DNA of 52,334 nucleotides from Micromonosporaceae bacterium (GCA_036384155.1 DASVMV010000331.1:1-52334), one strand, 5' to 3'; counted from the stretch's first letter, positions 22,011 through 38,422 are shown. A program made the numbers and translations. The notes: generated from the sequence alone by a model not told the origin.

Positions 22011-23126
22011 CTACCGGGCGGGCGACGGCAGGCCGCTCGGCGGAGCCCGTCGGCCGTCGAGTTGGACGGCGACGCGGCGCAGCACCTCGTCAACAACGCG
22101 TTCCCGGCCTTTCGCGTCCACTGCGGACCACGCCTGCCCGGCCAGGCGCTCCCGCCGGTCGGGTTCGACGAGCAGCGCCCGCAATGCCCCGAGTGCCTCG
22201 TCGGCCGGTGCGCCGCCCGCCGCGATGTCTTCGAGTCGGCCGAGCCCCACCGCCAGACCGCGGGCGACCACCCGATCGAACCCCAGTTGCTGGTTGTCGA
22301 CCACCCAGATCAGCGCGGCGCTCGCGCCGAGGCAGAGCAGCTCCCAGGTCGACGTGCCCGAGGCGCTGACCACCACGTCCGTCCGGGCGATCAGGTCGGG
22401 AAGATCATCGGTCGGACCGATCACCCGCAACTCCTGACCGGGGCCGGTCTTCAGGGCGGCCAGCGCGGCCCGCAGATGCGGCCGAGCCGCCACCACGGTC
22501 GCGTCGAACGGCGCTCCGGTCGCGATCAGCAGCCGGGTCAGGACCGGCGCCGCCTCGAACGCGTCCGTGCCGCCGAAGAACAGGAGGACCCGCGGCACCG
22601 CGCCGGACCGGGACCGCCCCGGGCGTCCCGGACTGGACGGCCGGCGCCGGCGGACCGAGTCGCGCAGCAGGGCGTACCGCAGACCGGCGAGCCGTACCGC
22701 GCCGTCGGGTAGCGCCGGCTTGAGCAGCTCGGCGTCGAGATTCTGGTCGATGTAGATGTCCGCCACCTGCCCGCGCAGGTCGCCGTCGACGATCGACACG
22801 ACGACCAGCCCGGCCGCCCGGCAGGCGGCGGTGTGGTCGGGGGGCAGCTCGTACGAGTCGGCTACCACCGCATCCAGGCCCAGCCGCCGCGCCAGCGCGA
22901 CGAGCTCGCCCGGGGTTTCCGGGGCCGGCAGCAATGGCAGGCTGCGGCTGGACAACTGCATTCGGGCCCAGGGCAGATCCTCGCTCATGTCACCGAGGAA
23001 GGTCACCTCGACGTTCCTGGCCCGGAACTCCTCGGCGAGCGCCACACAGCGGATCAGGTGGCCAACTCCCGTCGCCGGCCGGGCATCACACCGGATGCCC
23101 ACCCGCGCCGGTCCCCAGGCGCTCAC
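22011..23126 (-). CDS. pseG: UDP-2,4-diacetamido-2,4,6-trideoxy-beta-L-altropyranose hydrolase
   Basis: RVGIRCDARPATGVGHLIRCVALAEEFRARNVEVTFLG is the PseG N-terminal signature, in a GT-B-like two-domain layout. GTGA overlap with the upstream gene. Confidence 0.8.
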   Translation of the reverse strand: MSAWGPARVGIRCDARPATGVGHLIRCVALAEEFRARNVEVTFLGDMSEDLPWARMQLSSRSLPLLPAPETPGELVALARRLGLDAVVADSYELPPDHTAACRAAGLVVVSIVDGDLRGQVADIYIDQNLDAELLKPALPDGAVRLAGLRYALLRDSVRRRRPSSPGRPGRSRSGAVPRVLLFFGGTDAFEAAPVLTRLLIATGAPFDATVVAARPHLRAALAALKTGPGQELRVIGPTDDLPDLIARTDVVVSASGTSTWELLCLGASAALIWVVDNQQLGFDRVVARGLAVGLGRLEDIAAGGAPADEALGALRALLVEPDRRERLAGQAWSAVDAKGRERVVDEVLRRVAVQLDGRRAPPSGLPSPAR

Positions 23127-23851
23127 GCGTCGGTCAGCGCCTTCTGCTTGACGTTGGCGTTCAACTGCCGGATCTCCGGGTTGGCTACCAGCCACTCGGC
23201 CAGCTTGCGTACGGATGCGCTGGTGTCGCCGAAGTGGGCGACCGCGGCTTCGACCAGCCGCCAGTCGTCCGGCGTGTCCACTGTGACCCGGAGGTCGGAC
23301 AGGTTCGGCGGCATGGTCAGGCCGAGGATCCGGAACTGCTGGGGGTGGGTGTAGATGTACGAGGTGACATGCGTGCGGTGGTGCGCGGTCGCCAGCGAGT
23401 CGATCATGCGGAGCGTCCCGGCCCGGACGATCTCCACGTCCATGCCCAGCGGCAGCGACCGGGAGATGGCGGTGCTCAGGTAATCCAGTTCACCGACCGC
23501 TCGCCAGACCGTTGCGGCCGTCCCGATGATGTCCGGGTCGAGCAGAGGATTGTCCGCGCTGAACCGCATGACCGCGTCGGCCGGGTGCTCGTCGAGCGCG
23601 CCAAGGAAGCGGGTCAACACATCATCGGCCGAGCCGCGGTAGGTCGACACGCCGAGCCGCTGCGCCTCGCCGACCACCGCGTCGTCGACCTCGTCGGACG
23701 TGGTGGCCACCACCAGGTCGTCGAGCCCGGCGCTCTCCTGCGCCGCACGGACCACCCGGCCCAGTACGGTGCGGCCGGCGAGCTGGCGCAGGACCTTGCC
23801 CTCCAGCCGGGTAGACCCCATCCGCGCCTGGATGATGCCGACGATGCGCAT
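23123..23851 (-). CDS. pseF: Cytidylyltransferase (SpsF/COG1861-like), inferred CMP-pseudaminic acid synthetase
   Basis: MRIVGIIQARMGSTRLEGKVLRQLAGRTVLGRVV...VVATT...RGS..DVL is a cytidylyltransferase fold signature. An in-frame ATG at 23947 would add 32 residues encoded by the 17-bp repeat array. Confidence 0.75.
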   Translation of the reverse strand: MRIVGIIQARMGSTRLEGKVLRQLAGRTVLGRVVRAAQESAGLDDLVVATTSDEVDDAVVGEAQRLGVSTYRGSADDVLTRFLGALDEHPADAVMRFSADNPLLDPDIIGTAATVWRAVGELDYLSTAISRSLPLGMDVEIVRAGTLRMIDSLATAHHRTHVTSYIYTHPQQFRILGLTMPPNLSDLRVTVDTPDDWRLVEAAVAHFGDTSASVRKLAEWLVANPEIRQLNANVKQKALTDA

Positions 23852-23865
23852 GCTCCTGGCTCTCC

Positions 23866-23950
23866 TCTGGCTCAGTCCTGCCGATGGCTCGGTCATGCTG
23901 ATGGCTCGGTCATGCTGATGGCTCGGTTGTGCTGATGGCTCGGCCATGCC
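23866..23950. repeat. Tandem repeat, 4 good copies plus 1 degenerate copy of a 17-bp unit (gatggctcggtcatgct)
   Basis: Units at 23883-23899, 23900-23916, 23917-23933 and 23934-23950, with a degenerate copy at 23866-23882. The array lies between the pseC stop and the pseF start on the transcribed strand. Confidence 0.9.
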
Positions 23951-23982: not shown

Positions 23983-25116
23983 TCATGGGGCGAGGATGCC
24001 CCGGAGCGCGTCGACCACCCGATCCTGGTCGGCGTCGGTGAGGTCCGGGAACAGCGGCAGCGACAACTCCTCGGCGTAGAATGCTTCGGCGACAGGGCAC
24101 ATGCCGCGCCGGTAGCCGAGATCCTCGAAGACCGGATGCCAGTACACCGGGATGTAGTTGACCTGCACGCCGATGCCCTGCGCCCGCAGCCGGTCGTAGA
24201 CCTCGCGCCGGCGCCCGTCGAGCACCCGGACGGGGTAGAGGTGCCGGACGGGATCGACCCACTCGCGTTGGATCGGCAGCCGCAGGCCCGGAATGTCGGC
24301 GAGCAGCGTGTTGTAGCGGGCCACCAACTCGGCGCGGCGGTTCATGAAGGCCGGGAGCCGCCGCAGCTGACTGCGACCCAGCGCGCACAGTACGTCGGGC
24401 AGCCGGTAGTTCAGCCCAAACTCGGGCACCTCCTGGTGCCAGCCACCCTCGTCCGGATAGCGCTGCTGTGCCTTGTCGCGGACCAGGCCGATGTTGCGGA
24501 ACCGCCGGGCCCGCTCGAGCAGCTCGGGTGTCGTCGCCGCCACCGCCCCGCCCTCGGCGGTGGTCAGGTTCTTGGTGGGAAAGAACGAGAACGTGGTCAG
24601 GTCGGCGAGCGAGCCCACCGGCGTGCCCCGGTAGGTCGAGCCGATCGCGTGCGCCGCGTCGGCCAGCAGCAGCGCACCGGACCGCTCGGTGACCTTGCGC
24701 AGCTCGTCGTACTCGGCCGGGTGTCCGGCGTAGTCGATGGCTGCGACAACCCTGGTGCGGCTCGTCACCGCCGCGTCGGCGGCGGCGGGGTCCAGGTTCG
24801 CCGTGGCGTCGTCGACGTCCGCGAAGGCCACCCGGGCGCCCAGCGCGATCGCCGTCGACGCCGTGGCCACGAACGTCATCGGCGAGGTAACCACCTCGTC
24901 GCCGGCGCCGATGCCGGCTGCGGCGTACGCCGTGTGCAGGGCGGCGGTGCCGTTGCTGACCGCCACGCACGGCACCCCGCCGGTCCAGCCAGCGAGGTCC
25001 GCCTCGAACGCGTCGACCTGCGGTCCGGTCGTCAGCCAGTCACTGCGCAGCGCGGCGACGACGGCCTCAATATCGGAGTCGTCGACGGACTGTCGGCCGT
25101 ACGGAAGCATCCCCAC
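23983..25116 (-). CDS. pseC: UDP-4-amino-4,6-dideoxy-N-acetyl-beta-L-altrosamine transaminase (DegT/DnrJ/EryC1 family)
   Basis: MLPYGRQSVDDSDIEAVVAALRSDWLTTGPQVDAFE is the PseC-type N-terminus. The PLP-lysine region is FSFFPTKNLTTAEGG. Confidence 0.9.
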   Translation of the reverse strand: MGMLPYGRQSVDDSDIEAVVAALRSDWLTTGPQVDAFEADLAGWTGGVPCVAVSNGTAALHTAYAAAGIGAGDEVVTSPMTFVATASTAIALGARVAFADVDDATANLDPAAADAAVTSRTRVVAAIDYAGHPAEYDELRKVTERSGALLLADAAHAIGSTYRGTPVGSLADLTTFSFFPTKNLTTAEGGAVAATTPELLERARRFRNIGLVRDKAQQRYPDEGGWHQEVPEFGLNYRLPDVLCALGRSQLRRLPAFMNRRAELVARYNTLLADIPGLRLPIQREWVDPVRHLYPVRVLDGRRREVYDRLRAQGIGVQVNYIPVYWHPVFEDLGYRRGMCPVAEAFYAEELSLPLFPDLTDADQDRVVDALRGILAP

Positions 25117-25122
25117 CGCCCC

Positions 25123-26103
25123 TTATGCGATGCCGAGCAGCTGCCGCAGCTCTGCCGGGGTGAGCCACTGGTCGTTGGAGTCCGACCGGTAGGTGAACCC
25201 GTCCGGCACCTCCTCGCCGCCGGTTGGCGGGGTGTAGCCCCAGGTGGCGATCGTCGGCTGGACGACGTAGCGGTCCTTGAACCGCAGAGTGCGCCGGCTG
25301 TCGTCGGGGGCGATCATCTCCTCGTGGAGCTTCTCGCCCGGCCGGATGCCGATCTCGTACGTCGGGCTGTTCGGCGCGACGGCCTCGACCAGGTCGAGGA
25401 TCCGCATGCTGGGGATACGGGGAACGTAGAGCTCCCCGCCGTTCATGATCTCGAACGAGTCGACGACGAACTTGACCGCCTGCTCGAGGGTGATCCAGAA
25501 GCGGGTCATCCGCTTGTCGGTGATCGGCAGGCTCTTGCCCTCGGCGGCGAGCCGGCGGAACAGCGGCACCACCGAGCCACGGCTGCCCATGACGTTGCCG
25601 TAGCGGACCACGGCGAACCGGGCCGGGTGGTGCGCCGCGTAGTGGTTTGCCGACACGAAGAGCTTGTCGGCCACCAGCTTGGTCGCCCCGTACAGGTTGA
25701 TCGGGCTGGACGCCTTGTCGGTGGAGAGCGCCACGACCTTCTTCACGCCCGAGTCGATCGCCGCCTCGACGACGTTCTGCGAACCCGTGACATTGGTCTG
25801 GACGTACTCGAAGGGGTTGTATTCGGCGGTGTCCACCTGCTTGAGCGCCGCGGCGTGGACGACATAGTCGATGCCGTGCATCGCCCGGGTGAGCCGGAAG
25901 CGGTCGCGCACGTCCCCGATGAACCAGCGCAGCCGGGGGTCGTCGCCGAACATCTGCTTGACCTCGTACTGCTTGAGCTCGTCCCGGGAGAAGATGACCA
26001 CCCGCTGCGGGTCGAGGTCGGTGAGCACGTGCTTCAGGAACGCCTTGCCGAAGGAGCCCGTGCCGCCGGTGATCAAGATGGACGACCCACCCAGGATGCT
26101 CAC
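25123..26103 (-). CDS. pseB: UDP-N-acetylglucosamine 4,6-dehydratase (inverting)
   Basis: ILITGGTGSFGKAFLKHVL, DVRD, and YGATKLVADKLF (YxxxK). At 326 aa it is the short PseB/FlaA1 type. Confidence 0.9.
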   Translation of the reverse strand: MSILGGSSILITGGTGSFGKAFLKHVLTDLDPQRVVIFSRDELKQYEVKQMFGDDPRLRWFIGDVRDRFRLTRAMHGIDYVVHAAALKQVDTAEYNPFEYVQTNVTGSQNVVEAAIDSGVKKVVALSTDKASSPINLYGATKLVADKLFVSANHYAAHHPARFAVVRYGNVMGSRGSVVPLFRRLAAEGKSLPITDKRMTRFWITLEQAVKFVVDSFEIMNGGELYVPRIPSMRILDLVEAVAPNSPTYEIGIRPGEKLHEEMIAPDDSRRTLRFKDRYVVQPTIATWGYTPPTGGEEVPDGFTYRSDSNDQWLTPAELRQLLGIA

Positions 26104-26252: not shown

Positions 26253-26765
26253 CTACCTGCGCCGGCGGTCGGCGCGTTTCAGCGAGATGGGGATCACGGT
26301 GATCCGCCGCCCGTCGATCTCCCGCTGCTCGGGTTCGCCCTCGACGAACCGGAAGCGACGGTTCATCTGGCGGATGACCGCGTTGTGCTCCAGCACCTCG
26401 CCGTCGAGCCGATCGAGCTGGAGCCGGTCGAACGCGTAGTCGGCGGCCTCCCGCATCACCTCGAGCCAGGCCGGCAGGGTCGCCCGGCGCTCGTCGAGTC
26501 CCGCGGCGTCCAGAAAGAACCCCCACGAGCCGGTCTTGACCTCGCCGTCCAGGTCGAGGTCGAAGAAGTTGACCACGCCCGACGGCACCCCGTCGCGCTC
26601 GTAGATGAGAACCTGCCGGGTGCGGTCGGCCCGGGTCCGGGACCACCAGGCCGCGTGCTCGTCCGGTGTGATCTCGTGGCTGTGGATGCTCACCTCGCGG
26701 TTGGGCGCCTGGTTGCGCCACTGCCGCATGTCGTCCAGATCACTGTCGGTCGCCGGTCGCAGCAT
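26253..26765 (-). CDS. pseH: UDP-4-amino-4,6-dideoxy-N-acetyl-beta-L-altrosamine N-acetyltransferase (GNAT)
   Basis: MLRPATDSDLDDMRQWRNQAPNREVS...EHAAWW...VVNFFDLD...LEVLEHNAVIRQMNRRFRFVEGE fits the PseH GNAT pattern, and the gene sits in pse context. Confidence 0.8.
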   Translation of the reverse strand: MLRPATDSDLDDMRQWRNQAPNREVSIHSHEITPDEHAAWWSRTRADRTRQVLIYERDGVPSGVVNFFDLDLDGEVKTGSWGFFLDAAGLDERRATLPAWLEVMREAADYAFDRLQLDRLDGEVLEHNAVIRQMNRRFRFVEGEPEQREIDGRRITVIPISLKRADRRRR

Positions 26766-26805
26766 TCTCGGTCACCTTTCGGACGGACGGCGGGGCGGCC
26801 CGAAC

Positions 26806-26860
26806 GCTACAAGAACGGGGCGCGCTACCAGAACGGGGCCGCGCTGCGAAATCGGGGCGC
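26806..26860. promoter_or_regulatory. Three imperfect ~18-bp direct repeats (gctacNagaacggggcNgc) in the pseH / ACP divergent promoter region
   Basis: Copies at 26806-26823, 26824-26842 and 26843-26860. They lie between the pseH start (26765, minus strand) and the ACP start (26890, plus strand). Confidence 0.5.
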
Positions 26861-26889
26861 AACTAGCCGCCCGGGTATGCTCTCGCATC

Positions 26890-27141
26890 ATGAATCGGCT
26901 GAGTCGGTCCCAGGTTCGCGACCTGATGGGGCAAGTTATGAAGAACCAGGGCAAAGTTCTGCCTGACGACGACAGCGCAGATCTCCGTGAGATTGGCTTC
27001 CGGTCCCTCGACTTCTCCGAACTCGCCCTCCGCGTCGAAGACGAGATCGGCGAGGAGCTGAACTTCGACGCGCCCGGCCTGCGGCAGATCGCCACGGTCG
27101 GCGACGTCCTCGACTTCATCGTGCAGCTGCAGTCGGAGTGA
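26890..27141 (+). CDS. Acyl carrier protein
   Basis: 83 aa. LREIGFRSLDFSELALRVEDEIGEEL places a Ser in the carrier-protein SLD context, and the protein is acidic. GTGA overlap with the ligase gene. Confidence 0.8.
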   Translation: MNRLSRSQVRDLMGQVMKNQGKVLPDDDSADLREIGFRSLDFSELALRVEDEIGEELNFDAPGLRQIATVGDVLDFIVQLQSE

Positions 27142-28433
27142 CTGTGCCGGACGCGCCCGACGCCCGCTCGCCCCAACCGGCCCGGGCCGGCGATGACAAC
27201 CAGCCGGCCCTGGCCGGCGATGACAACCAGATCGTCGCCGGTGGCGCGACGTTGACCTGGCGGACGCTTCCCGCGGTCGATCTTCCCTCGCCGGTGGCGG
27301 TCCTCGCGGCCTCGGGCACCGATGCGCTGGCCGCCGCGCGGCAGCACGCCGTTTCCGGCACCGAACTGGTCCTCAGCACGCCGTCCCGGGTCGATCCGGC
27401 GCTGCGCGACGAGCTGACCGACGCCGGCTTCGCGGTCGCGCTGCTGGACGGCGGCGAGGTCACCATGCTGGCCAAGGGCCAACACCGGGCACCGGATCCC
27501 GGCCGCCTCTGGCTGCTCACCTCGGGCTCCACCGGGCGGCCCAAACGGGTCGGCCACACCCTGGACTCGCTCACCACCGTCCGCGCGCCGCAGGACCGGC
27601 GCACCTGGCTCTGCCCGTACTCGCCCGGCACGTACGCCTGGTGGCAGGTGGTGACGCTGTCGCTGACCCAGCCCGGGCAGGACCTGGTCGTGATCGAGCC
27701 CGCCGAGCTGGACCGGTGGCCCCAGATCGCGACCGAGCACGGGGTGACCGCCGCGTCCGGGACCCCCACGTTCTGGCGGCAGGCGCTCCACCGGGACGGC
27801 CCGGCCCTCGCCCAGGTGCCGCTGCGCCAGGTCACCCTCGGCGGCGAGCCGGTGGATCAGGCGATCCTCGACCAGCTGCGCGAGATCTTCCCCGCTGCGC
27901 GGATCTCGTGGATCTACGCGTCGTCCGAGGTGGGGGCCTCGATCGTCGTACACGACGGACGGGCCGGATTCCCCCAGGAGTGGCTCGACCGGCCCGCCCC
28001 GGACCGGCCCACCATCTCGGTGTCCGGCGACGAACTGGTGATCACCTCGCCGTACCACGGCGACGGGCTGGCCGGAGCGGTCCGCACGGGCGACCGCGTC
28101 GAGATCGTCGACGGCCGGGTGCACATCGTGGGCCGCCTCAACTCCGACGAGATCAATGTCGGCGGCTCCAAGGTTTCGGCCGGGCTCGTCCGCAACGTCC
28201 TCACGGCGCACCCCGCCGTGGCCTGGGCCCGGGTGAGCGGCCGGAAGGCTCCGCTGGTCGGGCGCGTCGTGGCGGCGGAGGTAGTGCTGGCTCCCGGAGC
28301 CGACCGCGCCGACGCCGACGAGGCGGCCCTCGTACAGTGGTGCACCGAGCGGTTGCCCGACTACGGCGTGCCACGCCGGATCCGCTACCTCGATGAGATC
28401 CCGTTCAAGGAGACCCTGAAAAGCGATGTCTGA
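27138..28433 (+). CDS. AMP-dependent (adenylate-forming) acyl-ACP/CoA ligase, short form
   Basis: LLTSGSTGRPKRVGHT core motif, YASSEVG, and GDRVEIVDGRVHIVGRLNSDEINVGGSKV. The N-terminus contains a duplicated AGDDNQ unit. Confidence 0.8.
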   Translation: MTVPDAPDARSPQPARAGDDNQPALAGDDNQIVAGGATLTWRTLPAVDLPSPVAVLAASGTDALAAARQHAVSGTELVLSTPSRVDPALRDELTDAGFAVALLDGGEVTMLAKGQHRAPDPGRLWLLTSGSTGRPKRVGHTLDSLTTVRAPQDRRTWLCPYSPGTYAWWQVVTLSLTQPGQDLVVIEPAELDRWPQIATEHGVTAASGTPTFWRQALHRDGPALAQVPLRQVTLGGEPVDQAILDQLREIFPAARISWIYASSEVGASIVVHDGRAGFPQEWLDRPAPDRPTISVSGDELVITSPYHGDGLAGAVRTGDRVEIVDGRVHIVGRLNSDEINVGGSKVSAGLVRNVLTAHPAVAWARVSGRKAPLVGRVVAAEVVLAPGADRADADEAALVQWCTERLPDYGVPRRIRYLDEIPFKETLKSDV

Positions 28434-29196
28434 CAGCGCCGGCCCGAGCTCCGCAGGCACCAGCGTGATTGCCCCCTCGACGGTCGTACTCGTCTCCGGC
28501 GGGTCGCGCGGGCTGGGCCTGGCGATCGTCGCCGACCTCCTCGCGCAGGGGTTGAAGGTGGCCGCATTCGCCCGGACGGTGACGCCGGAGCTGCAGGACC
28601 TGGCCGCCAAGTACGAGGGCCGCAGCCACGTCGGCTCCGTCGACATCACCGATGTCTCGGCGTGCCAGCGCTTTGTGAAGGAGACCGAGGCCCGCCTCGG
28701 TCCGATCGACGGTCTGGTCAACAACGCCGCGGTCGGCCAGGACTCGCTGCACGTCCACACGTCCGTCGACCAGATCGAGAAGATCGTCAACACCAACCTG
28801 ACCGCGCCACTGGTCCTCACCCGCCTGGTCCTGCGGCGGATGCTCGCGCAGGGCCTGCGCGGCCGGGTGGTCAACGTCACCTCCATCTGCGCCCAGCGCG
28901 GCTACGCCGGCCTCGTGGCGTACTCGGCCACCAAGGGGGGCATGGACGCCGCCACCCGCACCATCGCCCGGGAACTGAGCGGCCGGGTGCTGGCCAACGC
29001 CGTCGCGCCGGGCTTCTTCGCCTCCGAGATGTCGGCCGTGCTCGGCCAGACGCAGCTCGACCAGATCACCCGGCGTACGCCCACCGGGCACCTCACGGAG
29101 CCCGAGGAGGTCGTACCCGTCATCCGCATGCTGCTCTGCGACCACACCAACATCAACGGGCAGGTCATCGAGGTCGACGGTGGCGCATCGATCTAA
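28426..29196 (+). CDS. SDR-family oxidoreductase (3-oxoacyl-ACP reductase-like)
   Basis: VSGGSRGLGLAI (TGxxxGxG), NNAAV, and YSATKGGMDA (YxxxK). 8-nt overlap with the ligase gene. Confidence 0.9.
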   Translation: MSDSAGPSSAGTSVIAPSTVVLVSGGSRGLGLAIVADLLAQGLKVAAFARTVTPELQDLAAKYEGRSHVGSVDITDVSACQRFVKETEARLGPIDGLVNNAAVGQDSLHVHTSVDQIEKIVNTNLTAPLVLTRLVLRRMLAQGLRGRVVNVTSICAQRGYAGLVAYSATKGGMDAATRTIARELSGRVLANAVAPGFFASEMSAVLGQTQLDQITRRTPTGHLTEPEEVVPVIRMLLCDHTNINGQVIEVDGGASI

Positions 29197-29635
29197 CCGG
29201 CGACTCGCCGATTCGGCGCTGGTCCAGGCGGTGCTCGATCAGGCCGAGGCCAGGCTGGACGTGACCGGCGGCAGCGCCGGAGGCGGGGCCGCCGCCGGCG
29301 CACTGACCCGATCCCACACCTCGGACTTCCGCACCGTCGGGTGGTATGGCATCCCGCCGCCCGGCTGGCGCCTCGCGATCGACGCCGAGGTGAGCGACGC
29401 ACCCGTGCCGCCCGCCCTCGCGGCCCGCTTCGGCCCGGCGTCGTTCTGGAGCCGGTGGACCCGGGCCGAGAGCATGTGCAAGGTGTTCGGCGTGCCGATC
29501 GCGGTCTGGCTGCGCCGGCACGGTCTCGGCGTGCCGGCGCGGTTTCCCGGTGCGTGGCGCACGCTGGCGCTGGCCGACCTGACCATCTCGGTGGCCTGCG
29601 TGCCCGCCGCGGTGGTCGACCGAGGCGCGGGCTGA
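29180..29635 (+). CDS. Divergent, short 4'-phosphopantetheinyl-transferase-like protein (tentative)
   Basis: The 151-aa ORF has very high GC3. LAIDAEV resembles the GxDxE motif and FWSRWTRAESMCKVFG resembles the W-x-x-KEA-x-x-K motif of PPTases. The spacing is shorter than in canonical enzymes. Confidence 0.4.
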   Translation: MAHRSNRRLADSALVQAVLDQAEARLDVTGGSAGGGAAAGALTRSHTSDFRTVGWYGIPPPGWRLAIDAEVSDAPVPPALAARFGPASFWSRWTRAESMCKVFGVPIAVWLRRHGLGVPARFPGAWRTLALADLTISVACVPAAVVDRGAG

Positions 29636-29637
29636 GC

Positions 29638-30477
29638 ATGCATCACGCGAACTACTACTACGGGCACGCGCACCTGCTCGCCCGCTACTGCCGGCTCAGC
29701 GAGCCGATGCACCCGCCGCGGATCCTGGGCTACTACCAGCACGGCTGGAACATCGGTGACAGCCAGGCGGCCGGTGTCCCCTTGGTCTTCGGCAGCAAGC
29801 TCTTCGTGTGGTCCGAGCAGACCCGGCGGCGCGCCTGGTCGCAGGGGCGGCGCAACGCGATCGTGACCGGGGCGCCGTTCGCGTACCTGCTGCAGATGGA
29901 ACCCGAACCGCCGGACCTGCGCCGCGAGGGCACGCTGTTCTATCCGTTCCACGGGTGGGAAGGGCAACGGGTGCTGGGCGACCACGCCCGCATGATCGAC
30001 GAGGTCAAGTCGGTCGAGACCGGCCCCATCACCGCGTGCCTCTACTGGAGCGAGTACCGGAACAGGCGCATTCGCCGACAGTACGAGAAGGCCGGCGTGA
30101 GGGTGATCTGCCACGGCTATCGCGGCTTCTGGTGGCGCGATCACGACCGGACGTTCCTCGACCGCCAGATGGCCGAGCTCCGCCAGCACAAGCGGGTGGT
30201 CTCCAACCGGTTGTCCAGCGCGATCTGGTACGGGCTGCTCGCCGGCTGCGACGCGGCCGTGTACGGCGACCCGATGCAGCTGGAGGACGCGGACCCGCTG
30301 TTCGGCGGCGAGCCGCGGATCCGGCGGCAGTGGTCGGAGCTGTACGGCTACGAGGTCGACCGGTCCGTCGCGTACGCCATGGCCCGGGAGGAACTGGGCG
30401 CCGACCTCCTGGCCTCCCCGGAAGAGCTCCGGCTTCACCTCGGCTGGGCCGAATCTCAGGACGGTGGACATGTCTGA
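29638..30477 (+). CDS. Uncharacterised protein, family A, copy 1
   Basis: 279 aa starting MHHANYYYGHAHLLARYC. It is a paralogue of 34140-34970, sharing long blocks such as QHGWNIG, FVWS, GRRN, FHGWEG, GDHAR-IDE, HKRV--NRLS-AI and AVYGDPMQLE---PLFGG. I recognise no family. Confidence 0.75.
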   Translation: MHHANYYYGHAHLLARYCRLSEPMHPPRILGYYQHGWNIGDSQAAGVPLVFGSKLFVWSEQTRRRAWSQGRRNAIVTGAPFAYLLQMEPEPPDLRREGTLFYPFHGWEGQRVLGDHARMIDEVKSVETGPITACLYWSEYRNRRIRRQYEKAGVRVICHGYRGFWWRDHDRTFLDRQMAELRQHKRVVSNRLSSAIWYGLLAGCDAAVYGDPMQLEDADPLFGGEPRIRRQWSELYGYEVDRSVAYAMAREELGADLLASPEELRLHLGWAESQDGGHV

Positions 30478-32260
30478 CCCGGACCCGGTACGTCGCGTCG
30501 GCGGCGAGATGTTCGCCTGGAGCGACTGGGATCCCGCTCGGGGTCCCCGAGTTCCCCGCGGCAACACGCTGTTCCACCTGCTGTCGGAGCTCGCGTCGGG
30601 GAGTCGTACGGTCCTCGTCGCCGGGCCGCACGAGGACGAGATCCTCACCCGCTTGGCGGCCCGGGGCGCGGCCGTGTCCTGCGTGGTCCGCTCGCTGGCC
30701 GACGCCGAACGGATCGCCGGCGCCTACCCGGACGTCACGGTCTACTGCGGCAGCCTAGGCAAGATCGATCAGCCGGATGGCTTCGACCTGATCGTCGCCG
30801 CCGACGGCATGGAGCGGCTGGCCTCGGCCGAAGGCGGTCAGGAGAGCCCGGACGATCTGCTGCAGAGCCTGACCCACCTGCTGAGCTCGCGCGGCGTGCT
30901 GGCCCTGATGCACGCGAACATCTGCGGCGTACAGCATCTCGTCGAGCTGGAGCCGGGCCGCCACTACCGCTCGGACACGGCGTGGTACCCGGTCACCGAG
31001 CACGACGAGCTACGCCCCGCGTCCGTGCCCCAGTTGCACGATCGGCTGCGCGCCCACGGCCTCGACGTGTCGTGGGACTACGCCGTCTTCCCCACCTCCC
31101 ACCTGCCGACCGTCTTCGTCGCGCACGACATCGCCCGCGACGTCGACTCACCCCTGCGCGGCCCGCTCGGGTCAGTGCTCTTCGCCGCGCTGACCGAGGC
31201 GTACGCCGACACGCCGGTGGTCCGGGATCCCCGAGCGATCATGGAGCGCGCCGTGCGCACCGGCACCGCCGCGTCGTTGGCCCCAGCCTGGCTGACCCTG
31301 GCCCGGCGGGCCGATGCCACCGGCATGGCCGTGCCGCACCACGATCTGGTCGTCGGCGGCACCGACTCGTTCGTGTACGAATTCAGCGTTGCCGGCTCGG
31401 ACATCCGGCGATCGGTGCTGGCGCCCGCGACGGGAGAGGACCAGAGCGCGGGCCTGCGCCGGGTCGCCGACCCCGGGTCCGCGCTGCACCGGGCGGGTCG
31501 CCTGTTCGAAGACCACCTTCTGCAGCTGTGTGGCCGCCACGATCTGGTCGGCCTGCGGGCGGCGCTCGGCCGCTACGTCGCCTGGGTGCAGGAGCAGTCG
31601 TCCGACGGCGCGGTCGCCGGCGCCGCCGCACTCGCCGGCACCTACGACCTCATCTTCACCGAGACCGACTTCTGGCCCGTCCCCTCCAGGTGGGCCCCGG
31701 TCGAGCCGGTGCCGGCAGGCGTGGTCGTCGCCCGGACGCTGTGGGGATTCGCGGTACGACTGATCACGTTCAACCGCCCGCACCCGTGGCATCTGACCGC
31801 GAGCGCGGCGGAGCTCACCGCGATCCTCGCGGCGACCGCCGGCCAATCACTCAACCAGGGCGATCTCGATGCGGCAATCGATCTGGAAGCCGGCCAGCGG
31901 GCTGCTGACCGGGATCTCCCGCCGGAGCGGACGGCCGAACTCCGCGCCGCGCTCGCCGGCGTCCGGGCCGACACTGCGGGCGTCGACATCCAGGGCTACC
32001 GCGAGATGGCCGACGCCCTGTGGCGGCAGGAATACCAGCTGCAGCAGATGCACGCCCTGGTCGCCTGGACCGAAAAGATCATCCGGGACCGGGACCGCGC
32101 CCTCAGTGCGCTCGACCAGGAGGTCCGGCTGTACCAGGGCACCAGGACCGAAAAGGTGTTCACGTTCCTCAAGATGGCCTACCGCAAGCTGCGCTTCAGC
32201 GCCGGCCGGCTGAAGCGCAAGCTCCGGCGCAACCGCCGGGACGCGACCGAAATGCAGTAG
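30464..32260 (+). CDS. Uncharacterised protein, family B, copy 1 (Rossmann/methyltransferase-like N-domain, coiled-coil and basic tail)
   Basis: 598 aa. The N-domain TVLVAGPHEDEIL...FDLIVAADGMERL resembles a class I MTase fold but lacks the GxGxG loop. The C-terminus LWRQEYQLQQMHALVAWTEKIIRDRDRALSALDQEVRLYQGTR is followed by KVFTFLKMAYRKLRFSAGRLKRKLRRNRR. The GTG start overlaps gene A by 14 nt. Confidence 0.75.
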   Translation: MDMSDPDPVRRVGGEMFAWSDWDPARGPRVPRGNTLFHLLSELASGSRTVLVAGPHEDEILTRLAARGAAVSCVVRSLADAERIAGAYPDVTVYCGSLGKIDQPDGFDLIVAADGMERLASAEGGQESPDDLLQSLTHLLSSRGVLALMHANICGVQHLVELEPGRHYRSDTAWYPVTEHDELRPASVPQLHDRLRAHGLDVSWDYAVFPTSHLPTVFVAHDIARDVDSPLRGPLGSVLFAALTEAYADTPVVRDPRAIMERAVRTGTAASLAPAWLTLARRADATGMAVPHHDLVVGGTDSFVYEFSVAGSDIRRSVLAPATGEDQSAGLRRVADPGSALHRAGRLFEDHLLQLCGRHDLVGLRAALGRYVAWVQEQSSDGAVAGAAALAGTYDLIFTETDFWPVPSRWAPVEPVPAGVVVARTLWGFAVRLITFNRPHPWHLTASAAELTAILAATAGQSLNQGDLDAAIDLEAGQRAADRDLPPERTAELRAALAGVRADTAGVDIQGYREMADALWRQEYQLQQMHALVAWTEKIIRDRDRALSALDQEVRLYQGTRTEKVFTFLKMAYRKLRFSAGRLKRKLRRNRRDATEMQ

Positions 32261-32395: not shown

Positions 32396-34153
32396 TCACC
32401 GGCGCAGCACCCGGACCAGGCGCCGCTTCACCCCCCGTGCGAACCGCCGCGGTTGCCGGACCGTGCCGGCCTTGCGAATGATCTCGGCCAGCTTGGCCGC
32501 CCGGGAACCCTGGATCGTCCGCAGGTCCGACCGGAGCCCGCGCAGCCGGCTCTCGCGTACCCGCAGCTGCTGGTCGCGGAACCGGATGGTGCGCTCCAGC
32601 CCGAAGATGTGCCCGGCGAGCTCCTCGGCCCTGACCCGGGCGGCCTCCGCGTCGGCGAGCGCGGTACGCAGGTCGGCCTCCGGGTCGCCGCCGGAGTCGG
32701 AACCGCTCGCGGCCGCAACGGCGTCGGCGATCTCCCGTCCGCGCTTGACCGTCGCCGCCGTAGCCTCGTCCCCGGCCTCCTCCCCGCACATCGCGAGCCA
32801 TGCCGTCACGAGCTCGTCGCCGACCATCCACGGCGGCCACGGGTGCCGGCGATGTCCGCGCAGCAGGCGGTCCTGGAAGCGTTGCCAGGCCGCCGCCAGC
32901 AGCTCCGATGTGGACGCCGGCGGGGTGGTCACCCAGCCGAACACCCCGCGGGCGAAGGATTCCCCGTCCACGCACAGGTCGTCGAAGCAGATGACGACGT
33001 CAGCATCCTCCTCGGTGCGGCCCCGCGCCCACTCGCCGATCTGCGCAGCCACCCGGCGGAAACCCGGTACGTCCTCCGCGGCCGCCAGCCGGAGGAGGAC
33101 ACGTTCGACCGACTCGGTGTCGGGGACCACGCCCGGTACCGCGGCCGGGGAAAAGGCGATGCCGGCAGACGCGCCGCTCTCGGCGATCTCGCCGCTCTCG
33201 GCGCTCTCGGCGCTGGAGACCCGTACCCGCCAGCCCTGCTCGTCAAGGTTGGCGGTCAGCACGCTCGCCGCGTCTGCGGCCTCGGCGTAGACGGTACGGG
33301 CGGTGGCGCCGCACACCGCGAGCCAGCACGGTGACACGGCGTCGAGCAGCCCGGCCCGAGCGGCGGCGTCGGCGCTGTCCGCCACCGGGGCCAGCAGCGG
33401 GGTGCTGACCGTCGAGGCCTCCAACGCGCGGACGGCGAGCCGCGCGGCGAGCCGCCCCGGTCGGGTCGCGGCCGCGGCGGCCCGGTCCAGCATCGTGTGC
33501 GGGACGCCCGCGACGTCGACCATCGCGTACAGGCCCTCTACCGCGAGACCGACCCCGGCGAGGGCGTTGACCAGCTGGTCCGGCGACGTCGGCCGGTACG
33601 GGTCGTCGTGCAGCGGCCGCCATTCATCGTCGCCGTGCCGGTTGTCGACCGGTCGCCGGTCGAGCAGCCCGGTCAGCGCGAACTCGTTGTCGCACCCGAG
33701 GACGACCACGGCCTGCGGTGCGGCTGTCCGGGCCAGTGCGGACGCCCGCTCCGGCCACGTCATCGCCGGGGAATCCGTGCCGAGCACCCGGTCGAGGCCG
33801 TCGGCGGCCACGACCACGTCGAACCGCTCGTCGGCCCGGTCGGCAAATCCGTCGAGCGCCCCGGTGACGACCTTCACGTTGGTCGCCTGGACCGCCGCCT
33901 CCAGCGTCGTGGCGTCACCGACCGACCGCAGCAGTACCGTGACGCTCTCACTGCTGGCGGCCACGAGTTCGATGACGTCACGGGCGTGCGGGCCGACCAC
34001 GAGCGCCCGCGCCGCCTGCGGGAGCACGTCCTGCAGCAGGGCCTGCAGAACCGCGCCGCCGGTTGGCTTGCGGTGGCCCTCGTAGTCGCTCCACGGCTGC
34101 ATCTCGCCCCGGACGACGTCGACGGTGATCGAGCCGTTCTCAGTCACGTTCAT
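32396..34153 (-). CDS. Uncharacterised protein, family B, copy 2
   Basis: 585 aa with the same architecture as 30464-32260: ALVVGPHARDVI...FDVVVAADGLDRV, a C-terminal LERTIRFRDQQLRVRESRLRGLRSDLRTIQGSR, then AAKLAEIIRKAGTVRQPRRFARGVKRRLVRVLRR. The ATG overlaps gene A copy 2 by 14 nt. Confidence 0.75.
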   Translation of the reverse strand: MNVTENGSITVDVVRGEMQPWSDYEGHRKPTGGAVLQALLQDVLPQAARALVVGPHARDVIELVAASSESVTVLLRSVGDATTLEAAVQATNVKVVTGALDGFADRADERFDVVVAADGLDRVLGTDSPAMTWPERASALARTAAPQAVVVLGCDNEFALTGLLDRRPVDNRHGDDEWRPLHDDPYRPTSPDQLVNALAGVGLAVEGLYAMVDVAGVPHTMLDRAAAAATRPGRLAARLAVRALEASTVSTPLLAPVADSADAAARAGLLDAVSPCWLAVCGATARTVYAEAADAASVLTANLDEQGWRVRVSSAESAESGEIAESGASAGIAFSPAAVPGVVPDTESVERVLLRLAAAEDVPGFRRVAAQIGEWARGRTEEDADVVICFDDLCVDGESFARGVFGWVTTPPASTSELLAAAWQRFQDRLLRGHRRHPWPPWMVGDELVTAWLAMCGEEAGDEATAATVKRGREIADAVAAASGSDSGGDPEADLRTALADAEAARVRAEELAGHIFGLERTIRFRDQQLRVRESRLRGLRSDLRTIQGSRAAKLAEIIRKAGTVRQPRRFARGVKRRLVRVLRR

Positions 34154-34970
34154 TCCAATCGAAGAGCATCCGCATCTCGGCGGGCGACATCATCCACGGC
34201 CGGCCGAGTTCGTAGTCGGTCACTTCCCGGGCTACCTTGACGTCGATGTCCTTACCCAACATCTCCGGCCAGAGGCGGGCGACCCGCGCGGTTCCCCCGA
34301 ACAACGGGTTCTCGCCCTCCAGCTGCATCGGATCGCCGTAAACGGCGGGTTCGCAGCCGGCGGCGACGCCAAAAAAGATCGCCGTGGACAACCTGTTCGC
34401 GGCCACCCGCTTGTGCCGGCGCAGGGCCTCGAGCTGCTTGTACAGGAACCGCCGGTCCGTGCCCTCGTAGTTCCAACCCCGGCGGCCGAAGCAGACCACC
34501 TCGAAGCCGGCCTCTTCGTAGTAGCGGCGGATCTCCGGCCGCTCGTACTCGGTGTAGTAGAGGCTGAACGTCACCGGGCCGGGTTCGGTCTCCCGGATCT
34601 CGTCGATCAAACGGGCGTGATCGCCCTGGATCTTGCCGCCCTCCCAGCCGTGGAAGAGGAACCAGAGGGTGCCGCTGCGGCTTTCGTCGGGCACCCGACC
34701 CAGATCCGGCTCGAGGTCCATCAGGTAGAGCCACGGCGCGCCCACCACGTGGTAGTTGCGCCGGCCCAGCGAGTGGCCCCGCCGCCGGGGCGCGTCGCTC
34801 CACACGAAACGCCACGCGCCGTCGAAGAACTCGTGCACCGGATTCCAGCCGCAGCCGATGTTCCAGCCGTGCTGCAGGTATCCGCGGAGGCGGGGCGGAT
34901 GGACGTCGTCGAGACCGCAGTGGCGAGCAAGGATGTGGGTCTGGCCGTAGTAGTGATTGTGGTGATGCAT
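34140..34970 (-). CDS. Uncharacterised protein, family A, copy 2
   Basis: The protein starts MHHHNHYYGQTHILARHC at ATG 34968-34970, homologous to the start of copy 1; the track uses a TTG two codons upstream at 34976. By eye it is about half identical to copy 1. Confidence 0.75.
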   Translation of the reverse strand: MHHHNHYYGQTHILARHCGLDDVHPPRLRGYLQHGWNIGCGWNPVHEFFDGAWRFVWSDAPRRRGHSLGRRNYHVVGAPWLYLMDLEPDLGRVPDESRSGTLWFLFHGWEGGKIQGDHARLIDEIRETEPGPVTFSLYYTEYERPEIRRYYEEAGFEVVCFGRRGWNYEGTDRRFLYKQLEALRRHKRVAANRLSTAIFFGVAAGCEPAVYGDPMQLEGENPLFGGTARVARLWPEMLGKDIDVKVAREVTDYELGRPWMMSPAEMRMLFDWNERD

Positions 34971-34972
34971 AG

Positions 34973-37363: not shown

Positions 37364-38422
37364 TCAAACAAGGTCCCAGCTCAGCGGGGTGCCTTTGGCG
37401 ACATCACGGCGAAACGTGCGTCCGATCACCTTGCTGATCTCGTCCGGGGCAAGACCTCCGGCGGGACGGATGGAGCGCACGTTGGCGGCGGTGACCGGGT
37501 CACCGGCGCGCACATCCTCGGTGACGAACAGGGAGCGCCGGAACCGCAGCCCTTCCTGCTCGGCGTCGGATGGCCCGATGTACGTCGTGCCCAGGGCCTG
37601 CCAGGCCCGTTCGCTCTCGGTGACCAGCGCGGCCAACTCGGTGGGTTCCAACGAGAACGCGGAATCCACGCCGCCGTCGTCGCGGGCCAGCGTCACGTGC
37701 TTCTCGATCACCCGGGCGCCCAGCGCGACGGAGGCGACCGCAACGCCGATCCCCATCGTGTGGTCGGACAGGCCGACCACCGCGTCGAACGCCTCAGCCA
37801 GGACCGGTAGCCGCCGCAGGTTGCTGTGCTCGGCGGGGGCCGGATACGACACGGTGCAGGCCAGCAGGATCAGGTCGGCGCAGCCGGCGCCCCGGGCCGC
37901 CTCCGCCGCGGCGGCGACCTCGCCCAAGGTCGCCATGCCGGTGGAGATGATCAGCGGCTTGCCGGTGCTCGCGACCAGGCGGATCAGCGGCAGGTCGACG
38001 ATCTCCGACGAGGCAATTTTGTAGAGCGGCGCCCCTAGATCTTCGAGCAGGTCGACTGCCGTCGCGTCGAACGGCGAGGAGAACGCGATCATGCCGTGTT
38101 CCTGAGCCCGCTCGAAGATCGGCCGATGCCACTCCCACGGAGTGTGCGCCTGCTCGTACAGCTGGTAGAGGTTCCGCCCACCCCACAGGTCGTGGCCGTC
38201 GGAGATCTTGAAGGCAGGCGCATCCACGTCAATGGTCATCGTGTCGGCGCGATAGGTCTGCAGTTTCAGCGCCTGGGCCCCGCTGGCGGCCACCGAATCG
38301 ACGATGGCCAGCGCCCTCGACAGGTCACCATTGTGGTTCCCGGACATCTCGGCGACGATGAACGGCCGGTGATCCGGCCCGACGCTGTGCGCGCCGCACT
38401 TGATGGACTCACGTCGGCTCAT
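37364..38422 (-). CDS. pseI: Pseudaminic acid synthase (NeuB family)
   Basis: FIVAEMSGNHNGDLSRALAIVDSVAASGAQALKLQTY is a NeuB TIM-barrel signature. There is a C-terminal SAF-like domain (...VRSIRPAGGLAP...GTPLSWDLV). The gene sits in pse context. Confidence 0.88.
   Translation of the reverse strand: MSRRESIKCGAHSVGPDHRPFIVAEMSGNHNGDLSRALAIVDSVAASGAQALKLQTYRADTMTIDVDAPAFKISDGHDLWGGRNLYQLYEQAHTPWEWHRPIFERAQEHGMIAFSSPFDATAVDLLEDLGAPLYKIASSEIVDLPLIRLVASTGKPLIISTGMATLGEVAAAAEAARGAGCADLILLACTVSYPAPAEHSNLRRLPVLAEAFDAVVGLSDHTMGIGVAVASVALGARVIEKHVTLARDDGGVDSAFSLEPTELAALVTESERAWQALGTTYIGPSDAEQEGLRFRRSLFVTEDVRAGDPVTAANVRSIRPAGGLAPDEISKVIGRTFRRDVAKGTPLSWDLV

Follow-up and report, generated by a model that had tools for sequence, protein, structure and literature searches.

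Why should a locus for pseudaminic acid (Pse) biosynthesis carry its own carrier protein (ACP), adenylating ligase, reductase and phosphopantetheinyl transferase (PPTase)-like protein? The N-acyl groups that nonulosonic acids and other aminosugars carry vary, and this variation shapes bacterial surface identity in features such as serotype, recognition by phages and lectins, and wall-polymer chemistry. We analysed a stretch of 52,334 nucleotides from a Micromonosporaceae bacterium, an actinomycete from soil (DASVMV010000331.1:1-52334; hereafter the window), in which four such genes lie divergent from pseH. A sequence-only reading of the window had proposed that they provide a hydroxyacyl-ACP for non-acetyl N-acylation of Pse; taken as a whole, this interpretation is partly supported. 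We consider it moderately probable that the four genes and the divergent PseH-clade GNAT form a unit that replaces the N7-acetyl group of Pse by a short hydroxy-acyl group. The module offers a concrete four-enzyme hypothesis in which a 'priming cassette' of the kind known from polyketide biosynthesis serves to decorate a glycan. The model is built on the structure and synteny of the genes, on their co-inheritance and on the families and folds of their products; from these data we infer every step of the chemistry, including the identity of the acyl group.

Gene organization

The cassette consists of an 83-residue ACP (26890–27141), a short ANL adenylating ligase of about 405–431 residues (27138–28433), a MupS-type SDR reductase of 256 residues (28426–29196) and ORF4, a 151-residue protein with a predicted Sfp-like PPTase fold (29180–29635). 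All four are encoded on the plus strand in frames with high third-position GC and are genuine genes. The PseH-clade GNAT, which matches GNAT Pfam families, is encoded on the minus strand (26253–26765), and the 124 bp intergenic region read from the DNA (26766–26889) is common to pseH and the cassette operon. In Micromonosporaceae loci, the gap between the pseH and ACP genes measures 79–128 bp. Overlaps were read from the DNA at all three junctions: GTGA between the ACP and ligase genes (27138–27141), ATGTCTGA between the ligase and SDR genes (28426–28433) and 17 nt between the SDR gene and ORF4 (29180–29196). These overlaps are the ones given in the sequence-only reading, and the coordinates, coding frames and intergenic gap agree with its description of four overlapping genes divergent from pseH. 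Gene A starts with an ATG at 29638, and the ORF4 stop codon precedes it by 2 nt. That the cassette runs straight into genes A and B, as the reading also stated, is specific to the window and the relative closest to it; elsewhere A and B mostly follow pseC.

Linkage to the pse genes

We compared 80 related loci (Micromonospora, Actinoplanes, Plantactinospora, Kribbella and others), which, as loci of related organisms, are not independent samples. Every one of the 80 has the ACP–ligase–SDR order, and a recurrence of this kind makes the architecture more than chance. In 79 of these loci, representing two orders, the divergent neighbour is a GNAT of the PseH type; ORF4 is found in 75 and PseI is encoded within 10 kb in 71. 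Among 150 sampled Micromonosporaceae genomes, ten contain ligase orthologues and all ten encode PseI (within 8 kb of the ligase in nine), while about 25 further genomes have PseI and no ligase. The cassette-linked PseH proteins form one clade (SH-aLRT 98, branch length 0.45) apart from cassette-less PseH. Mapped onto the PseI tree, presence of the cassette requires five changes, at least three of which are forced. The single PseH clade, set against at least three gains or losses on the PseI tree, indicates that the GNAT and the cassette travel as one unit between pse loci.

Synteny, co-occurrence with PseI and the PseH clade all show the linkage that had been proposed between the cassette and the pse genes, and the comparison of homologues with nonulosonic-acid loci that the reading had recommended comes out in its favour. 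Phylogenetic independence of the cassette from these genes, which it had named as an argument against itself, was not seen, the PseH clade being co-inherited with the cassette.

The same data bear on whether the cassette primes an unrelated secondary-metabolite pathway and owes its place next to the pse genes only to chance or to shared regulation. Its characterised relatives MacpD, MupQ and MupS do prime the polyketide-linked fatty acid of mupirocin (PMC10098928), and in Nocardia terpenica an ACP–ligase–SDR trio without sugar genes is located next to a terpene synthase. However, no ketosynthase, PKS or NRPS gene is present in the window locus or in the examined actinobacterial cassette loci, in which the constant neighbour is a GNAT and not a ketosynthase (a relative in Azospirillum does have a KAS III). 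With adjacency to pseH extending over two orders, we regard a secondary-metabolite role as very improbable.

Carrier protein and ligase

The ACP scores 23.7 bits against PF00550 (cut-off 20.8 bits) and its Ser39, located in the motif GFRSLDFSE, is invariant, in agreement with the earlier identification of an 83-residue carrier protein. The motif is kept at 37–61% identity across phyla and has an Arg in place of the Asp that usually precedes the attachment serine.

The assignment of the second gene as a short AMP-forming ligase also stands, with matches to PF00501 (66.3 bits) and PF13193 (45.1 bits). The protein has 431 residues when counted from the first GTG; the exact start is uncertain because the orthologues align only from about residue 9–27. 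In a 40-sequence alignment the P-loop, TGD and GR motifs and the C-terminal Lys428 are kept; S129, G130, G133, D319 and R333 are invariant, and T128, K136 and K428 are nearly so. At E < 1e-30, relatives of the ligase comprise 777 cluster representatives, mostly with lengths of 380–475 residues.

The SDR is of the MupS type

The third protein, which matches adh_short at 4e-44, contains the catalytic motif YxxxK and a signature that probably binds NADPH. It had been described as a FabG-like SDR, a label that has to be given up. By far the closest relative of solved structure is MupS (PDB entry 4yxf), to which the SDR is about half identical and which scores 172.8 bits compared with 122.7 bits for the best FabG, the next match. 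A profile of the module SDRs gives 258.3 bits for MupS and 193.6 bits for the next match; for the SDR and the whole module family, MupS is 50–65 bits above any FabG or acetoacetyl-CoA reductase. The score against the FabG model TIGR01830 (175.5 bits) is under the curated cut-off of 297.75 bits. On this comparison of sequences the SDR is classified as MupS-type. No SDR match at 1e-40 was found in the plasmid collection. By analogy with MupS, the more likely reaction is reduction of the CoA thioester on a dicarboxylyl-ACP to give an ω-hydroxyacyl-ACP, and ketoreduction to 3-hydroxybutanoyl-ACP is less likely.

Ketoreduction would nevertheless leave the unit and its target unchanged: the ligase would load a β-keto acid (for example acetoacetate), the SDR would form 3-hydroxybutanoyl-ACP and the product would be Pse5Ac7(3-hydroxybutanoyl). 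This N-acyl variant of Pse is documented in the literature (PMC6586298), and the SDR does match FabG models at 1e-51. In one distant module the genes directly after the cassette encode methylcrotonyl-CoA carboxylase, enoyl-CoA hydratase and HMG-CoA lyase, enzymes of leucine catabolism, a pathway that releases free acetoacetate; that neighbourhood is a single case, however, and may be a separate operon. Given also the bit-score advantage of MupS and the sub-threshold FabG score, we consider the acetoacetate route unlikely and favour thioester reduction within the hydroxyacylation unit.

ORF4 has a predicted PPTase fold

The proposal that the small ORF is PPTase-like agrees with its predicted fold and with its motif and fails at the level of sequence models. 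ORF4 has no match in Pfam or NCBIfam even at an E value of 10, its profile retrieves no PPTase from the PDB sequences and a genome scan with PF01648 misses its orthologue (in genome G005). Alignment to seven actinobacterial AcpS proteins with hhalign gives a probability of 1.3%, though with the E/K motif aligned in register. The AF2 model (pLDDT 89.7), in contrast, resembles Sfp- and AcpS-type PPTases: the first 20 Foldseek matches in the PDB are all PPTases (best E value 5e-4), as are nearly all of the structural matches listed, and the VIA comparison gives a Z score of 7.2 for Sfp (115 residues aligned) and of 5.3 for AcpS, so that the family is consistent while the Z scores are middling. 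Among 15 sequences drawn from several phyla, residues D68, E70, W93, E97 and K101 never vary; they make up a D-x-E motif on a strand and a W-x-x-x-E-x-x-x-K motif on a long helix. In Sfp, these positions are occupied by the residues that bind Mg and by the catalytic Lys. The Lys of the usual K–E pair is replaced by Ala. ORF4 differs from Sfp in its length (151 residues compared with about 225) and in a reduced N-terminal half, and its motif-to-motif spacing is shorter than in the Sfp and AcpS enzymes.

Judged from the model, ORF4 appears to have a trimmed Sfp-type phosphopantetheinyl transferase fold with the metal-binding motif, and we propose that it may act as a dedicated activator of the ACP, which would make it unusually small for an enzyme of this class. 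It is not indispensable, because it is missing by tblastn from four Kribbella and four Micromonosporaceae loci.

The PseH-clade GNAT and the transfer step

The GNAT domain gene is located in a locus that also encodes PseB, PseC, PseF, PseG and PseI, and four near-complete genomes with the cassette (G005, G141, G148 and G071) have no PseH-family match other than the GNAT next to it. Its score against the PseH model TIGR03585 (63.2 bits) is under the curated cut-off of 93.1 bits, a shortfall that is largely a lineage effect because cassette-less actinobacterial PseH proteins (72–93 bits) overlap in score with the cassette-linked copies (62–81 bits). A low score against the PseH model was ruled out as a mark of cassette-linked GNATs owing to the same overlap.

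The sequence-only reading had left acyl transfer to PseH or to protein A or B. The PseH-clade GNAT is the best assignment for this step, and the other half of the suggestion does not hold, as both A and B are present in cassette-less pse loci and the fold of A is GT-B-like, similar to those of TarL/TagF, UDP-GlcNAc 2-epimerase and Kdo transferase. We infer that the GNAT takes its acyl group from the ACP; a complex prediction for the two proteins gave a score of 0.46 compared with 0.35 for the control, which counts neither way. To our knowledge, the GNAT sugar N-acyltransferases characterised so far, such as FdhC, use acyl-CoA.

Alternatively, the acyl group could go elsewhere (to the polymer as an O-ester, to a different sugar or to a primer of the lipid or linker type), leaving the GNAT as an ordinary acetyl-CoA-dependent PseH. 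Such a scheme would fit the general PseH signature that the GNAT retains, would offer a place for several uncharacterised proteins of the locus (B, B' and a membrane protein of 776 residues) and would not need the putative use of acyl-ACP by the GNAT. It would not account for a GNAT clade that is co-inherited with the cassette when PseI is not, nor for other phyla placing an N-acyltransferase of a different fold beside the ACP, mostly just upstream, and the candidates A and B are not confined to cassette-bearing loci. We rate a different destination as quite unlikely and retain N-acylation of the Pse precursor by the GNAT.

Comparison with known systems

In mupirocin biosynthesis, MupQ, MupS and MacpD convert malonyl-CoA to 3-hydroxypropionyl-ACP, and their genes are in the order macpD–mupQ–mupS (PMC10098928). 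The window cassette resembles this Pseudomonas fluorescens system, and the thiomarinol proteins TmlQ, TmlS and TacpD, in having a stand-alone ACP, an adenylating enzyme and a homologous SDR in the same order. It differs in the absence of a downstream ketosynthase, the acyl-ACP being proposed to serve a sugar N-acyltransferase and not chain extension, and in the addition of its own miniature PPTase-like gene. [quoted passage not shown]

In the group II flagellin glycosylation islands of Aeromonas, the genes downstream of pseH include those for an ACP, an AMP-dependent synthetase and a 3-oxoacyl-ACP reductase (PMC7874193). Compared by gene content, the three protein types thus adjoin pseH in a pse locus there as well; however, the order is ACP–SDR–ligase followed by luxE/luxC, the genes are co-directional with pseH, the target is flagellin and a small PPTase-like ORF is not part of the published description. 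In Acinetobacter baumannii, replacement of psaD/E (the PseG and PseH equivalents) by psaG/H goes with Pse5Ac7(3-hydroxybutanoyl); in the K42 and K93 capsules a swap of the PseH-step acyltransferase module alters the N7 acyl group from acetyl to hydroxy-acyl (PMC6586298). A distinct PseH clade likewise marks the variant, cassette-bearing loci in our comparison. The A. baumannii system differs in that its listed psa module (psaABCGHF) is without a carrier-protein cassette, its acyl donor is presumably a CoA thioester and its PseG equivalent is swapped too. Pseudoalteromonas has an aminosugar with a 4-hydroxybutyramido group (PMC3210612). Our literature search found no characterised ACP-dependent sugar N-acylation.

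RfbK–RfbO of Vibrio cholerae O1 are responsible for the tetronate N-acylation of perosamine. This glycan locus, like that of the window, has an ACP and a ligase of its own, there serving to provide a hydroxy acid as N-acyl group; its other enzymes differ, with LuxC/E-like proteins and an iron alcohol dehydrogenase among them. FdhC and AntD are hydroxyacyl-CoA sugar N-acyltransferases, which resemble the proposed transfer in that GNAT or LbH enzymes move hydroxy-acyl groups to aminosugars and differ in using CoA thioesters. We know of no established route to N-acyl groups like 4-hydroxybutanoyl or 3-hydroxypropanoyl. Teichulosonic acids of Kribbella and Actinoplanes, studied by Shashkov, Tul'skaya and co-workers, reportedly carry dihydroxybutanoyl on N7 of Pse; the full-text literature searched gave nothing usable on Pse from these genera or on dihydroxybutanoyl.

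Proposed pathway

In the proposed pathway, ORF4 would convert apo-ACP to holo-ACP at Ser39, and the ligase would adenylate a carboxylate and load it onto the holo-ACP; by analogy with MupQ, its substrate may be the free carboxylate of a dicarboxylyl-CoA, for example malonyl- or succinyl-CoA. The SDR would reduce the acyl chain with NADPH, by analogy converting the distal CoA thioester to an alcohol, to give 3-hydroxypropanoyl-, 4-hydroxybutanoyl- or a related hydroxyacyl-ACP. The GNAT would acylate UDP-4-amino-4,6-dideoxy-β-L-AltNAc at its 4-amino group with this hydroxyacyl chain, replacing the acetyl group from acetyl-CoA, and PseG, PseI and PseF would complete CMP-Pse5Ac7(hydroxyacyl). The GT-B-like protein A and GT2 enzymes might then incorporate the sugar into a wall glycopolymer (teichulosonic acid).

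Relatives in other phyla and outside sugar loci

Distant modules from other phyla, with ligases of 32–47% identity, consist of an LbH acyltransferase, an ACP, a ligase, an SDR and a small ORF homologous to ORF4, the acyltransferase and ACP being in swapped order in one locus (L121). Their clusters contain DegT aminotransferases, 4,6-dehydratases, FdtA, glycosyltransferases or flagellin. An aminosugar N-acyltransferase always adjoins these modules, mostly just upstream of the ACP, and this constant neighbour fits a role of the acyl-ACP as donor for N-acylation. To that extent the original idea of an acyl-ACP donor survives; the ketoreductase step that it included is less likely, the SDR being MupS-like. 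An Azospirillum plasmid, on which pseI is followed by genes for a glycosyltransferase, a carrier protein, a hydrolase, the ACP, the ligase, the SDR, KAS III and flagellin, is an independent link to Pse.

More speculatively, and with less confidence than we place in the Pse-specific unit, these loci may all represent a widespread, uncharacterised module of five genes that attaches N-hydroxyacyl groups to aminosugars. It would comprise a GNAT or LbH N-acyltransferase, a GFRSLDFSE-type ACP, a short ligase resembling MupQ, a thioester reductase resembling MupS and a miniature PPTase not recognised before. The GNAT of the pse version would then be the first sugar N-acyltransferase of its fold with an ACP donor, and the terminal hydroxyl of the acyl chain could serve as a point of glycosylation or polymerisation in actinomycete teichulosonic acids. 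The combination of the ligase, the MupS-type SDR and the PseH subclade would be a marker by which to predict non-acetyl Pse from genomes, and Kribbella, Micromonospora, Actinoplanes and Plantactinospora include culturable carriers of the cassette in which chemistry and genetics can be matched. Strains with the cassette include Kribbella caucasensis VKM Ac-2527, Paractinoplanes globisporus DSM 43857 and Plantactinospora siamensis TBRC 2205. In Streptomyces acidiscabies, a relative of the ligase stands alone.

Gene organization

The window derives from a Micromonosporaceae metagenome-assembled genome (68% complete; contig C331, ~71% G+C) and its coding frames were identified by third-position GC. 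The cassette consists of four genes on the plus strand: an 83-residue acyl carrier protein (ACP; 26890–27141), a short ANL ligase (27138–28433), an SDR (28426–29196) and the 151-residue ORF4 (29180–29635). The overlaps (GTGA, ATGTCTGA and 17 nt), read from the DNA, match those described in the sequence-only reading, and its four overlapping genes are real. Two nucleotides separate the end of ORF4 from the ATG of gene A (29638–30477, plus strand), which is followed by gene B (30464–32260, plus strand). Divergent from the ACP, across a gap of 124 bp, the minus strand encodes a PseH-like GNAT (26253–26765), PseB (25123–26103), PseC (23983–25116), PseF (23123–23947) and PseG (22011–23195). PseI (37364–38422) and two GT2 glycosyltransferases lie to the right of the cassette, also on the minus strand.

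The start of the ligase is uncertain, as orthologues begin to align only at about residues 9–27 of the window ORF. A near-perfect tandem duplication of ~27 bp (27170–27232) in this N-terminal extension encodes AGDDNQ twice; the stretch is absent in orthologues, so either the duplication is recent and sits in a variable leader, or the true start lies further downstream.

Association with pseudaminic acid loci

Among 150 other Micromonosporaceae genomes checked for ligase and PseI orthologues, ten encode the ligase (61–81% identity). All ten also encode PseI, on the same contig and less than 8 kb away in nine of them. PseI occurs without the ligase in ~25 further genomes of this sample, so only a minority of pse loci carry the cassette, as an accessory. 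Scanning species genomes gave 80 close loci in Micromonospora, Actinoplanes, Paractinoplanes, Plantactinospora, Verrucosispora and Kribbella. The ACP, ligase and SDR are present in all 80, ORF4 in 75 and PseI within 10 kb in 71; a PseH-type GNAT lies upstream on the opposite strand in 79, the exception having just 1.8 kb of upstream DNA. The GNAT–ACP gap is 79–128 bp in Micromonosporaceae and 1.5–8.4 kb in Kribbellaceae, mostly with an inserted membrane-protein gene. The arrangement is thus real and strongly non-random.

In many pse loci without the cassette (L096, L099, L101, L102, L106, L107 and L109), a different SDR, 26–34% identical to that of the cassette, adjoins pseB and is mostly divergent from it. 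Plantactinospora siamensis has a second pse locus (L093; contig C26 of genome G110) with PseI, PseB, PseC, PseF and PseG; no PseH gene was found near this locus, and the sole strong PseH match of the genome is the cassette-linked copy.

Distantly related modules

Short ANL enzymes related to the ligase form a large family (777 cluster representatives at E < 1e-30); most have 380–475 residues, and all catalytic motifs are kept. Gene neighborhoods were looked up for 13 diverse relatives (32–53% identity). Nine of these, in eight distinct arrangements, are accompanied by a hexapeptide-repeat (LbH) acyltransferase, an ACP, an SDR and an ORF of 92–170 residues for which no Pfam match was found; the order of acyltransferase and ACP is reversed in one (L121). 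The ACPs share the motif GFRSLDFSE around an invariant serine, with 37–61% identity across phyla. Cluster partners of the nine modules include DegT aminotransferases, 4,6-dehydratases, FdtA or GFO/IDH/MocA oxidoreductases, glycosyltransferases or flagellin genes. Such a combination, an aminosugar N-acyltransferase of GNAT or LbH fold with one and the same kind of ACP, ligase and SDR, is the makeup to be expected of a system for N-acylation from acyl-ACP.

A Burkholderia sola relative retains the ACP–ligase–SDR trio at a contig end. Two counter-examples are the trio of Nocardia terpenica, which adjoins a terpene synthase, and the ligase of Streptomyces acidiscabies, which stands alone. In Azospirillum ramasamyi (plasmid NZ_CP029830.1, 218973–237968), the genes run in the order pseI, a glycosyltransferase, a PP-binding protein, an alpha/beta hydrolase, the ACP, a ligase 39% identical to that of the window, the SDR, a KAS III and flagellin, which puts the trio between pseI and flagellin; here the starter could be extended before flagellin is decorated. 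One distant module (on the contig of P0140) comprises dehydratase, FdtA, DegT, GT2, LbH, ACP, ligase, SDR and small-ORF genes. Methylcrotonyl-CoA carboxylase, enoyl-CoA hydratase and HMG-CoA lyase genes follow directly and could supply acetoacetate or a branched hydroxy acid.

The reductase and the predicted acyl group

FabG models do match the SDR, which had been called FabG-like, but with scores below their cut-offs; by sequence it is assigned to the MupS type. Its best match among solved structures is MupS (4yxf; 172.8 bits versus 122.7 bits for the best FabG); by eye, roughly half of the aligned residues are identical, and a profile of ten module SDRs scores 258 bits against MupS and 194 bits against the best FabG. 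In the mupirocin priming cassette, MacpD, MupQ and MupS produce 3-hydroxypropionyl-MacpD from malonyl-CoA, and the gene order macpD–mupQ–mupS is that of the window ACP, ligase and SDR (PMC10098928). By analogy, the ligase would use the free carboxylate of a dicarboxylyl-CoA to attach it to the ACP, after which the SDR would convert the CoA thioester into an alcohol by reduction, yielding an ω-hydroxyacyl-ACP. Thiomarinol homologues make 4-hydroxybutyryl-ACP from succinyl-CoA. Candidate acyl groups are 3-hydroxypropanoyl, 4-hydroxybutanoyl, dihydroxybutanoyl (from malyl-CoA) and, by ordinary ketoreduction, 3-hydroxybutanoyl, the last weakly hinted at by the leucine-to-acetoacetate genes that follow the P0140 module. 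A 4-hydroxybutyramido aminosugar has been described in Pseudoalteromonas (PMC3210612).

A carrier-protein route to non-acetyl N-acyl pseudaminic acid, the core of the sequence-only reading, is best supported, and we consider it somewhat better than an even chance with the chemistry predicted here; taken jointly with the variant in which the SDR performs FabG chemistry, the route is quite probable. The cassette is a variant of two known kinds of system, the priming cassette and the acyl variants that arise by exchange of PseH. In Acinetobacter baumannii, psaG/H in place of psaD/E goes with Pse5Ac7(3-hydroxybutanoyl) (PMC6586298). In Aeromonas, group II flagellin glycosylation islands have genes for an ACP, a 3-oxoacyl-ACP reductase and an AMP-dependent synthetase 3′ of pseH, with luxE and luxC after them; the authors guessed a putative 'liposugar' role (PMC7874193). 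Our full-text literature search found no module of this type in which ACP-dependent sugar N-acylation had been characterized biochemically. Teichulosonic acid is present in Kribbella walls (PMC6113628). Two of the VKM strains from the research group behind that chemistry (L067 and L077) contain the cassette. Kribbella and Actinoplanes polymers reportedly include pseudaminic acid with an N-dihydroxybutanoyl group, which we treat as a lead and not as evidence.

The PseH-clade GNAT

The likely acyl transferase is the PseH-clade GNAT, rather than A or B as had also been proposed. Cassette-linked copies are 48–81% identical to the window GNAT; in cassette-less loci the PseH gene adjoins pseI and identity is 37–51%. 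In a PseH tree of 58 sequences, the 43 cassette-linked copies form one side of a branch (SH-aLRT 98, length 0.45). On the PseI tree the cassette label requires five changes, at least three of them forced by well-supported branches; PseI of Actinoplanes and Paractinoplanes, for instance, groups with a cassette-less relative. The GNAT and cassette therefore behave as a single unit that pse loci have acquired, lost or swapped. Scores against the PseH model fail to distinguish the two clades. Since the cassette-linked GNAT is the sole PseH-family match in four near-complete cassette-bearing genomes, it must carry out the 4-N-acylation of the pathway. N7 of pseudaminic acid derives from the amine acylated in the PseH step, so the predicted product is Pse5Ac7(acyl).

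A second PseH-like GNAT (46% identical; ~7025–7513 in L010) lies close to the cassette in a Micromonosporaceae MAG (L010/L075). It groups, on a long branch, with the cassette-less copies and adjoins a DegT aminotransferase just 27% identical to PseC.

ORF4

No sequence model searched detects ORF4 as a phosphopantetheinyl transferase (PPTase). Its confident AlphaFold model (pLDDT 89.7, pTM 0.84) gave PPTases as all of the first 20 Foldseek matches in the PDB (Sfp, E 5e-4). A second structural alignment gave middling scores: Z was 7.2 for Sfp, over 115 residues drawn from both halves, and reached 5.3 for AcpS with residues 60–143. Asp68, Glu70, Phe89, Trp93, Glu97, Lys101 and Pro106 are invariant in an alignment of ORF4 orthologues with the small ORFs of the distant modules. 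The D-x-E motif lies on strand 63–71, and Glu97 and Lys101 on the long helix 89–103, at positions occupied in Sfp by the Mg ligands and the catalytic lysine. Fold and motif thus support the earlier description of ORF4 as PPTase-like, with membership of the PPTase family and the activity itself putative. An ordinary AcpS is also encoded elsewhere in the genome; an unusual arginine precedes the attachment serine of the ACP and could explain the need for a dedicated activator. tblastn found no ORF4 in four Kribbella loci (L062, L077, L088 and L090) and four Micromonosporaceae loci (L004 and L007–L009) with downstream DNA present, so the gene is dispensable or replaced in some lineages.

Genes A and B

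The A–B pair usually lies 3′ of pseC and not of the cassette, and it is also found in cassette-less pse loci, which assigns both genes to the pse locus and not to the cassette. Most actinobacterial pse loci include such pairs. Neither A nor its paralogue A′ (34140–34976, minus strand) has a Pfam match. The confident model of A (pLDDT 85.5) resembles GT-B enzymes, namely TarL/TagF teichoic-acid polymerases, UDP-GlcNAc 2-epimerases and Kdo transferases; this GT-B-like fold argues against an acyltransferase, and that role for A or B was set aside. A and A′ may be pseudaminic acid transferases or polymerases of a wall polymer.
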